Source: a virus (lineage: Duplodnaviria; Heunggongvirae; Uroviricota; Caudoviricetes). Taken from it: 16,970 nucleotides of DNA. Where the stretch lies: IMG/VR virus record IMGVR_UViG_2925903241_000002. One strand, 5' to 3'. The notes below the pieces were generated by a model that did no database searches, was not told the origin of the DNA, and was given only the letters and a program-made list of their open reading frames with translations. This document shows, one piece after another, positions 13,492 to 15,761 of the stretch (the stretch's first letter is position 1; each line of letters starts with the position of its first letter). A program made the position numbers and the translations under genes.

Positions 13492-15761
13492 GTAGAGTAA
13501 GAGGCAGGGCGTAGTCGGACTATTTCCCTGCCTCTCCTCCCCGAACCGGACGTGCACCTTTCAGCGCATCCGGCTCTCCATTTAAATGCTGGCGAACGCC
13601 ATTGCCACTTCTGTAAAGCGCGATGTATACGTGTTTCTGGTCTCCGTCCTCAGATAGGGATTACCTTCGGGTAGCCGCCAGCGGAACAGCTTCTTGCCTT
13701 GCCCCACCAACCGGTACAGTATTTCGCCGCTGAGCTTGCCGTGATTGGTTTTACCAAATAAAACCCACGTTTTGCTCTGACCCGGTTTCGGTGATTTACA
13801 CCACCACCTCATCAGGGAAGCGATACCTGTACGGTATTTGCGGGCCAGCCAGTGAGCCAGCTTCCAGAACACGACACGGTCGATATAACTGAAGACTTTG
13901 GCCTTAAAATCAACGAACTGATAGAACATGGCCCAGCCTTTCAGTTTTCGGTTGAGTTGTTCAGCCATATCGACTTTGCTTTCACTGTAGTTGCCTGATA
14001 ACAGTGCTGTCAGCGATGCGGCGAAGTTTCTGGCTTTCTCCTGCGGGATCGTTGAGACCACTCGCATCTCGCCATAACGACTGCGTTTGCGAATGATCCT
14101 GTGCCCCAGAAAGATAAAGCCGTCATTAACATGGGTGATTTTAGTCTTATCCATGTTCAGCCTGAGTTTCAGACTGCCTTCGAGCACACCCCGACACTCC
14201 TCCCTGATGGCTTCCGCCTGTGCTTTGGTGCCTTTGACGATGAGGACAAAATCATCGGCATAGCGGCAGTACGCCACCGCGGGTTTCCACTGCCAGTTTT
14301 CTCTGACCGCCGTACTTCGGCCCCGTTGGATACTGTTATTCCAGTACCACCGATCTTTTCTGGCTTTCCCGCTCAGGTAGCGCTCATGCAGGTATTGATC
14401 GAACTCATTCAGCATGATGTTCGATAATAGCGGCGATATAACACCGCCCTGTGGCACACCTTCACTGGCCGCCCGAAAGAGACCGACATCGATATGTCCC
14501 GCCTTGATGGTTTTCCACAGCAGAGTCATGAAACGTGCGTCACTGATCCTGCGGCGTACAGCCTTCATCAGCAGTCGATGATGTACGGTGTCGAAGTAAC
14601 TGGACAGGTCGCCTTCAATCACCCAGCGTCCCCGGGTTTCACCACAGTCTGTGAGCTGTAATTTCACCGTGCGGATCGCGTGGTGGACACTGCGCTCAGG
14701 CCGGAAGCCATATGAGAGCGTATGAAAATCACTCTCCCATATCGGCTCCATCGCCATCAGCATGGCCCGCTGAACAATACGATCCCGCAACGCGGGGATA
14801 CCCAGTGGTCGCAGTTTGCCGTTGCTTTTAGGGATGTAAACCCGTCTGGCGGGCAAGGGCTGGTAGTGGCCTGAGAGTAATTCATCCCTGAGGATTTGCA
14901 GCTCAACAGCCAGTCTGGCCTGTAGCATTGTTTTGTTCACGCCATCAACGCCGGGGGTATGGGCCCCCTTTGATGAAAGCGTGATCCGCGCCGCTTCAGC
15001 CAGCCATTCTGGTTGTGTTATCAGACGCAGCAGCCGTTGAATCCGTAGGGACGGATCGGTGACTGCCCATGTGGCAAGCTTGCGTTGCATTTCGCTGATT
15101 ATCAAAGGTCTTCACCTCGTTAGGTCAGTTAATTCACGTCGCAAACACATTCAAACTGCTTCCCTTCGCCATGTAATGGGCTTTCCCCATCGCGGACTAC
15201 TACGGAAGCTCCGCCAGCCAGCGCGTCATCGGAGCCATGCCCCCTTAACATCCGTCGCTGACCTTCCCCGGTTTACCTGCCTGGACTCAGGCATACTGAG
15301 GAGGCTGCCCGTCGCACTCTTTATCCTTGCTTGCCGCAAGTTGGCAGAAGTCAGCAACGCAAGCGTGATAGACGCTGCTGCCCCGGTGTTTCGCATACAT
15401 GTCAAAACACCTTCGACCGGCAGTGCTTACGTATCACTGCCAGTTCCTCCTGCACGGCCTGTCAGATCACGTAGGCCGTGGTGACGTTTTCAACCCACAG
15501 AGGCGGATTAACGGGTTCATGTTCTTCAGCCTTTCAGTACTTAACCTTGAGGATCATCTCGGCTTAGTGATCTCGCCTCAATCCCCGTTGTCAGCGGGTT
15601 ACATCACCCTGCGGGCATGCCGCAGGTCACTGCCGCTCAGGTTCTCCACCGTCACACCCGGTGGGATTGTTGGGTTTCTCATCGTGAGTTACCGGCTCAA
15701 TATTCCAGACAGACTCGCGGTTCATTTAAGCATCCATGCCCGCCCTGAACTCCGGGCACAC
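13492..15761 (-). mobile_element. group II intron (about 656 nt of 5' domains, the ORF in domain IV, about 90 nt of 3' domains)
   Basis: Starts GUGUG, ends AC; carries an RT/maturase ORF; removal exactly restores the orfB frame. Boundaries were deduced from the exon reading frame. Confidence 0.8.
13582..15105 (-). CDS. group II intron-encoded reverse transcriptase/maturase
   Basis: 507 aa with RT motifs (KLRPLGIP, GDLSSYFDTV, PQGGVISPLLSNI, YCRYADDFVLI) and a maturase X-like region. No HNH Cys/His motifs are evident. The start is TTG at 15105 or the ATG 15 nt downstream. Confidence 0.9.
   Translation of the reverse strand: MIISEMQRKLATWAVTDPSLRIQRLLRLITQPEWLAEAARITLSSKGAHTPGVDGVNKTMLQARLAVELQILRDELLSGHYQPLPARRVYIPKSNGKLRPLGIPALRDRIVQRAMLMAMEPIWESDFHTLSYGFRPERSVHHAIRTVKLQLTDCGETRGRWVIEGDLSSYFDTVHHRLLMKAVRRRISDARFMTLLWKTIKAGHIDVGLFRAASEGVPQGGVISPLLSNIMLNEFDQYLHERYLSGKARKDRWYWNNSIQRGRSTAVRENWQWKPAVAYCRYADDFVLIVKGTKAQAEAIREECRGVLEGSLKLRLNMDKTKITHVNDGFIFLGHRIIRKRSRYGEMRVVSTIPQEKARNFAASLTALLSGNYSESKVDMAEQLNRKLKGWAMFYQFVDFKAKVFSYIDRVVFWKLAHWLARKYRTGIASLMRWWCKSPKPGQSKTWVLFGKTNHGKLSGEILYRLVGQGKKLFRWRLPEGNPYLRTETRNTYTSRFTEVAMAFASI

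Follow-up and report, generated by a model that had tools for sequence, protein, structure and literature searches.

The window analysed here, a 16,970-nt stretch of viral DNA (IMG/VR record IMGVR_UViG_2925903241_000002, Caudoviricetes), carries on its minus strand a copy of the insertion sequence (IS) IS629, a member of the IS3 family, whose orfB gene contains a sense-oriented group II intron. This intron is very probably a full-length and apparently functional copy of E.c.I4, residing at its natural homing site within orfB. Its ends are fixed to the base, an empty allele of the same locus exists, and it combines an intact reverse transcriptase (RT)/maturase gene with recognizable ribozyme domains on either side. 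All coordinates are those of the window.

Boundaries and identity of the intron

Read along the minus strand, orfB runs through ...GCTGATTTTACTTACG into the intron, which opens with GTGTGCCCGG... and closes with ...CTTACTCTAC before the second exon resumes as TCAGCACATGG...; the intron termini, GUGUG at 15761-15757 and ...UAC ending at 13492, agree with the group II consensus GUGYG / AY. Because the bases flanking the insert differ from its own terminal bases (the first base is G, against a T just after the insert, and the last is C, against a G just before it), the boundaries cannot be shifted by even one base. In silico removal of the intron leaves an IS629 of 1310 bp (12977-16556) in which orfA is complete and orfB encodes 296 aa, reading ...ADFTY / VSTW... 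across the joint; without removal, the orfB frame enters the intron for 20 codons and then meets a stop.

The intron-free arrangement is also found as a natural allele. E. coli TUM2805 (NZ_CP128951.1) has this 14.7-kb locus too, but its IS629 is uninterrupted and joins ...TTTTACTTACG directly to TCAGCACATGG...; it differs from the window by three substitutions elsewhere, the exons being identical, and the locus is thus polymorphic for the occupied and empty states. A preliminary description, made from the letters of the window alone, had proposed a 2270-nt minus-strand insert running from GUGUG to AC, whose exact excision would rejoin orfB in frame between ...ADFTY and VSTW.... The same coordinates were recovered here, and both the removal and the TUM2805 allele show the frame to be restored on precise excision.

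Compared with E.c.I4-2b of E. coli E24377A (NC_009801 4848623-4850892, coordinates from Table S3 of Leclercq and Cordaux, PMC3522654), the window intron is identical at 2266/2270 positions (99.8%); by a database rule, introns more than 95% identical share one name (PMC3552965). The four substitutions lie at intron positions 66, 327, 1043 and 1085, two of them within the open reading frame (ORF) and both of these synonymous, and the protein of E.c.I4-2b has the same RefSeq accession, WP_001189123.1. E.c.I4 has been reported in the IS3-like transposase genes of IS629, IS911, ISEc16 and ISEc31 (PMC3522654), E. coli and Shigella introns in IS629 are listed in an older compilation, and Toro and colleagues place E.c.I4 and S.f.I1 in ORF class A, a class without an endonuclease (En) domain (PMC3552965, PMC4244168); the class assignment of the window intron is taken from these two papers. 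With E.c.I4 and S.f.I1 it shares the 2270-nt length, the protein accession, the insertion point and the lack of an En domain, and only its location, an IS629 copy at leuX next to a P4-like satellite prophage, sets it apart from published E.c.I4.

Earlier publications therefore already cover the element, the class it belongs to, the missing endonuclease and the preference for transposase genes of IS629 and other IS3-family elements, and the preliminary description was right that introns in IS629-like elements had been described before. Its verdict of a well-preserved example and not a new system holds in that the copy is intact and not new, but it understated how common the element is, since the 30 plasmid records that match best among those listed all carry the window allele at 100% identity. 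At a threshold of at least 99% identity the intron occurs in 1430 plasmid records, whose hosts are mostly Escherichia, Klebsiella and Salmonella, and this near-identity across plasmids argues for recent activity. On chromosomes, the arrangement seen in the window, in which an istB remnant lies next to the intron-bearing IS629, is 100% identical in many E. coli genomes; with a 120-nt probe and coverage of at least 80%, the IS629/intron 5' junction is present in 1438/5426 complete E. coli genomes and the uninterrupted junction in 3053.

Intron-encoded protein

The RT/maturase that the preliminary description had read from the insert is supported by a match to TIGR04416 (group_II_RT_mat, NCBIfam) of 341 bits against a cutoff of 300, and a Pfam scan of the 502-aa protein at E<=0.1 returned only RVT_1 and GIIM (Table 1). 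Its closest solved relatives are LtrA (5g2x, E=2.2e-52) and other group II RTs. Neither an HNH pattern nor an endonuclease domain was found after domain X by Pfam (E<=0.1) or by motif inspection, and the endonuclease-free class suggested earlier agrees with the published class A (PMC3552965, PMC4244168); the extension that follows domain X is kept in alphaproteobacterial relatives, where it reads ...FRWR.PE.NPY....

Two minor features lie close to the protein start. A TTG at 15103-15105 of the minus strand, 7 nt past GAGGUG and five codons 5' of the annotated ATG, may serve as an alternative start, and a conserved hairpin, CUGA...GAGGUGAAGACCUU...UCAG, within 15095-15128 of the same strand, just 5' of the protein start, resembles the protein-binding DIVa of other introns.

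Ribozyme domains

At the 3' end of the intron, Rfam RF00029 (Intron_gpII, gathering score 40) matches 13492-13578 of the minus strand over 87 nt, the full model length, with 64.9 bits (E=4.6e-11). Folded alone, the 3' 90 nt form two hairpins, domains V and VI, with a folding energy of -48.2 kcal/mol (z=-5.8 relative to shuffled sequences) and the canonical features listed in Table 1; the covariance-model match and this fold place both domains within 13492-13581, the interval in which they had been predicted. In alphaproteobacterial relatives, a G-C pair of domain V is replaced by U-A, a compensatory change read from the alignment.

Relatives of the intron cover a range of divergence. That of Yersinia pestis pMT, a truncated copy, is 92% identical over the 5' 1159 nt, one on an E. 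coli plasmid is 89% and 86% identical over two segments, and one on a Salmonella plasmid is 85% identical. The introns of Acetobacter aceti pAAJCM20276_2 (L023:2494-4730) and Brucella anthropi p1 (L024:2499-4751) show 67% nucleotide identity and 66% full-length protein identity, C-terminal extension included.

None of the Rfam group-II D1-D4 models matches domains I-IV of the intron even at E<=10, a threshold at which a scan of the whole intron brought up only domain V/VI models, and covariance-model scans consequently detect this intron class only through domains V and VI. For the 5' 670 nt, folded by comparison with five relatives, the consensus comprises 164 pairs, 47 of which show compensatory changes. 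Within a chosen subset of helices, 96% of cells are paired compared with 85% in shuffles, and 14 pairs carry double changes; sliding the partners by 1-3 columns lowers this number to 1-4.

This fold includes a 7-bp loop-loop tertiary pairing within domain I, which is 100% paired in six sequences and has five of its seven pairs altered on both sides; the counterparts of AGAUCAC/GUGAUCU are AAACCGU/ACGGUUU in Acetobacter and AAGCCGU/ACGGCUU in Brucella. It probably corresponds to the alpha-alpha' or beta-beta' tertiary contact.

Target site and exon recognition

To describe the target, 5' exons were sampled from near-identical copies (one genome per species, giving ten distinct exons), from two more plasmid copies, which sit in IS629- and IS911-type elements, and from five diverged relatives. 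In all contexts examined, the intron lies in an IS3-family transposase gene directly after D-[F/V/I/L]-T-Y codons plus one base, and the 3' exon starts with T; ectopic insertion sites outside IS3-family transposase genes, which would tell base-pairing constraints apart from those of the codons, were sought, and none was found among these contexts. From site to site, the synonymous exon positions -2, -5, -8 and -11 change freely, and those dictated by the protein sequence do not change. The W..D.TY block of IS3-family transposases holds the first DDE aspartate, whose GAU codon lies within the candidate intron-binding site (IBS) 2. The intron lineage thus draws on a sequence that the transposases hosting it are not free to alter, and this explains its range across several IS species.

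The Acetobacter and Brucella introns occupy the same position after D-x-T-Y, and both the domain I fold and the loop-loop pairing recur in them, but they start with GUGCG instead of GUGUG, have a shorter first domain I hairpin and carry exon-binding site (EBS) loops fitted to their own exons. Their sequences suggest that the E.c.I4 lineage is broader than the three nearly identical class A members reported as of 2014 (PMC4244168).

Candidates for EBS1 and EBS2 both lie in hairpin loops and follow each other in the canonical 5'-to-3' order (Table 1). The stem of the EBS1 hairpin shows compensatory changes in 7/8 pairs, and the GUGG:CCAC stem of the EBS2 hairpin covaries as well. In ten natural sites, 5-6 of the six positions of the candidate EBS1 loop pair with exon positions -1 to -6. 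The same loop follows its exon in relatives: in Brucella, CGUAGG pairs at 6/6 positions with the exon CCUAUG, and in the 89%-identical E. coli relative, UGUAUG pairs at 6/6 with CGUAUA. For EBS2, Brucella has AGGUC opposite GACCU, a compensatory match read from the alignments. From these patterns the assignment appears the best supported one, though not unique. No EBS3 was located.

Two further candidates were set aside. GAGAU (intron 203-207), considered as EBS2, is situated in the internal loop of a conserved hairpin, and the adjoining AGAUCAC is taken up by the covarying loop-loop pairing. UGUAACCC (intron ~159), considered as EBS1, reached 4-5 pairs when scanned for complementarity, but in the predicted fold it falls within a helix or bulge.

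Table 1. Positions of the intron, its parts, the host IS629 copy and neighbouring features in the window
Feature	Position	Strand	Remarks
Group II intron E.c.I4	13492..15761	-	2270 nt, GUGUG...CUCUAC
Domains I-III and start of domain IV	15091..15761	-	consensus fold with five relatives
Loop-loop pairing, 5' partner	15567..15573	-	AGAUCAC, domain I
Loop-loop pairing, 3' partner	15464..15470	-	GUGAUCU
Candidate EBS2	15483..15488	-	AACGUC, intron 274-279, 13-nt loop of hairpin 15478-15498
Candidate EBS1	15394..15399	-	UGUAUG, intron 363-368, 9-nt loop of 8-bp hairpin 15386-15410
Candidate IBS2	15769..15774	-	exon -8 to -13, GAUUUU, complementary to loop 15483-15488
Candidate IBS1	15762..15767	-	exon -1 to -6, CUUACG, complementary to loop 15394-15399
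IBS3 position	13491	-	first base of exon 2, T in every site seen
Intron-encoded protein (ltrA)	13582..15090	-	502 aa from ATG, identical to RefSeq WP_001189123.1
Reverse transcriptase domain	14095..14835	-	aa 86-332, Pfam RVT_1 1.4e-34
YADD active site	14251-14262	-	aa 277-280, intact
Maturase (X) domain	13828..14025	-	aa 356-421, Pfam GIIM 1.3e-10
C-terminal extension	13585..13827	-	81 aa, one Cys, no D/En domain
Domain V	13543..13576	-	34 nt, AGC triad, 2-nt AC bulge, GAAA tetraloop
Domain VI	13494..13540	-	bulged branch-point A at 13498, 7 nt from 3' splice site
IS629 (IS3 family) including intron	12977..16556	-	3580 bp as found; 1310 bp intron-free
IS629 orfA	16176..16502	-	108 aa, untouched by intron
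ALIL pseudoknot	16105..16221	-	Rfam RF01497, 120.2 bits, E=2.8e-31; IS3-family -1 frameshift signal between orfA and orfB
orfB exon 1	15762..16179	-	ends ...LWVADFTY plus first base of next codon
orfB exon 2	13019..13491	-	runs to stop
IS100 istB remnant	16605..16970	+	abuts IS629; context only
Satellite prophage integrase	1-1263
Satellite prophage TOPRIM/DUF927 primase-like gene	4230-6902
Satellite prophage psu	8043-8594
Satellite prophage ogr/delta	8591-8872
Retron St85-family effector	9500-10486
Retron RT	to 11420		follows the effector

Function and route of insertion

Several observations weigh against an active E.c.I4 that homed into this IS629 copy and recognizes its exons as proposed. 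Neither for this copy nor for E.c.I4 generally was any expression or splicing evidence found, the literature consulted included. The IS629 copy lacks a 3-bp target-site duplication (CTC at 12974-12976 and TAC at 16557-16559, minus strand), and the occupied state could stem from recombination with another IS629::intron copy and not from retrohoming in place. Within the ribozyme, the candidate EBS1 is mismatched at exon -5 in 7/10 natural sites, whereas UGUGGGU (15493-15499, intron 263-269) is complementary to IBS1 at 7/7 positions in most enteric sites.

UGUGGGU is kept as an alternative EBS1 only: four of its bases belong to a covarying stem, in which a U-A pair becomes A-U in alphaproteobacterial relatives, and in those relatives it cannot pair with the A that is invariant at exon -3. 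As for the missing duplication, it bears on the history of the IS copy and not on its family membership. The element has the traits of IS629 and the IS3 family, with a length of ~1.3 kb, terminal inverted repeats (TGAACCGCCCCGGG... and ...CCCGGGGCGGTTCA), orfA and orfB and a -1 frameshift signal, and at an identical locus RefSeq names it 'IS3-like element IS629 family transposase'. Because the duplication is absent and unrelated mobile-element remnants lie on both sides, this IS629 copy may be a recombination or deletion joint.

A second route into the site would have a genuine E.c.I4 arrive from another IS629::intron copy in the cell, on the chromosome or on an IncF plasmid, through homologous recombination or gene conversion. 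Donors would be at hand, since each carrier chromosome holds 5-10 matching places and co-resident IncF plasmids hold the same allele in an IS629-type element; an IS629 without target duplication is a sign of past IS-IS recombination, and intron/IS tandems have been argued to be recombination-prone (PMC3522654). The occupied and empty exons are nevertheless identical, with no conversion tract visible (none is expected between identical IS copies), and E.c.I4 is documented to spread by retrohoming into identical sites (PMC3522654). We regard arrival by recombination as unlikely overall, yet as the most serious competitor of retrohoming in place.

Much less probable is that the intron no longer splices, which would make the IS629 copy a disrupted pseudogene with a dead passenger. 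Both orfB halves are marked as incomplete pseudogenes in RefSeq, some E.c.I4 copies have disrupted ORFs, and many genomes retain unoccupied homing sites (PMC3522654). Here, however, the ORF is intact, with YADD in place, domains V and VI are canonical, the allele found unchanged in the 30 best plasmid records listed also recurs at 100% identity in many chromosomal copies, and an intron-free version of the same locus points to a recent gain or loss. An RT from a non-intron system (a retron, a DRT or a group-II-intron-like defence RT) placed inside the IS is already refuted: despite a genuine retron St85 2 kb away in the window, the matches to the NCBIfam models for retron St85 RT, Drt3a and Drt2 (54, 51 and 48 bits) fall far under their cutoffs (235, 200 and 390 bits) while TIGR04416 passes, and ribozyme domains flank an ORF whose surrounding intron has exact boundaries against the empty site.

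For a functional E.c.I4 at its homing site, the following course can be proposed. The IS629 transcript would carry the intron, and the RT/maturase, made from domain IV, would bind the intron RNA and aid its self-splicing, with the bulged A of domain VI as the branch point; splicing would free a lariat ribonucleoprotein and rejoin orfB, with OrfA unaffected throughout. The ribonucleoprotein would then reverse-splice into intron-less IS3-family transposase genes, base pairing with the D-x-T-Y-encoding DNA around the first catalytic aspartate. Lacking an endonuclease, the protein would need a DNA 3' end that already exists to start cDNA synthesis, and a nascent strand at a replication fork is the likeliest source; such priming is described for RmInt1 on the lagging strand and for an endonuclease-defective Ll.LtrB on the leading strand (PMC6698660). 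Splicing in vivo, its dependence on the maturase, the mode of priming and the EBS assignments are all inferred from what is established for group II introns; that transposase production depends on splicing, as the preliminary description put it, is a sound inference, in that OrfAB would be made only from spliced mRNA.

Comparison with RmInt1 and Ll.LtrB

RmInt1 of Sinorhizobium meliloti (class D / IIB3) is likewise a natural En-minus intron, whose RT/maturase has a class-specific C-terminal extension and which homes into an insertion sequence, ISRm2011-2, unlike the targets of E.c.I4. It is also expected to need replication-fork DNA ends for priming (PMC6698660), and differs in ORF class, D against A for E.c.I4 (PMC3552965). 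Ll.LtrB of Lactococcus lactis (IIA, class ML) shares the RT/maturase in domain IV and target recognition by EBS-IBS pairing, but its protein, LtrA, cuts the bottom strand and possesses D and En domains; in the E.c.I4 protein, domain X is followed by only ~80 aa, which contain no nuclease motif.

The orientation of the window copy offers a further point of comparison. Intron and host gene lie on the strand opposite the adjacent leuX (L001:2752-2836, +), and are therefore probably head-on to replication, so that the leading-strand template would have been used if the intron was inserted in place; RmInt1 prefers the lagging-strand template. Among the E.c.I4 copies of E. coli IAI39 (Table S3 of PMC3522654), ~10 of the 13 that could be assigned are head-on, with rough replichores that assume a K-12-like origin and terminus. 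We put forward, as a doubtful suggestion only, that E.c.I4-type (class A) introns prefer the leading-strand template (head-on), with the nascent leading strand serving as their primer; the head-on tendency could merely mirror the orientation of the IS elements. If true, the preference would be a bias opposite to that of RmInt1, the only well-studied natural En-minus intron.

Annotation of intron-carrying IS copies

RefSeq annotation by PGAP (e.g. NZ_CP028578.2) records ltrA but not the intron, and labels both orfB halves 'incomplete' pseudogenes; intron-bearing IS copies are in this way systematically recorded as dead. Since the intron goes unmarked and the halves carry pseudogene labels, such IS629 copies are probably undercounted as potentially active. 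The discovery value of the window copy is small, as the element is published and the same sequence stands in thousands of public records, and its practical value lies in the annotation of intron-carrying IS copies. It also illustrates the strategy of a parasite on a parasite: the catalytic D-x-T-Y codons offer the intron many places to insert safely, and plasmids and prophages carry these places along.

Genomic surroundings

The istB remnant abuts IS629, which indicates nested mobile elements, and the other flank of IS629 is occupied by an integrase pseudogene. In the 48-nt spacer between istB and the left end of IS629 (16557-16604, minus strand), a 9-bp inverted repeat, AAGCGTCAA...TTGACGCTT, is followed by a T-rich run; this terminator-like feature immediately precedes the IS629 promoter region.

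Positions 1-11420 of the window hold a P4-like satellite prophage beside tRNA-Leu(CAA) (leuX); the names of the prophage genes in Table 1 are those given by RefSeq at a nearly identical locus. Between ogr/delta and the retron effector lies a 628-nt gap (8873-9499), which might be the location of the retron non-coding RNA.

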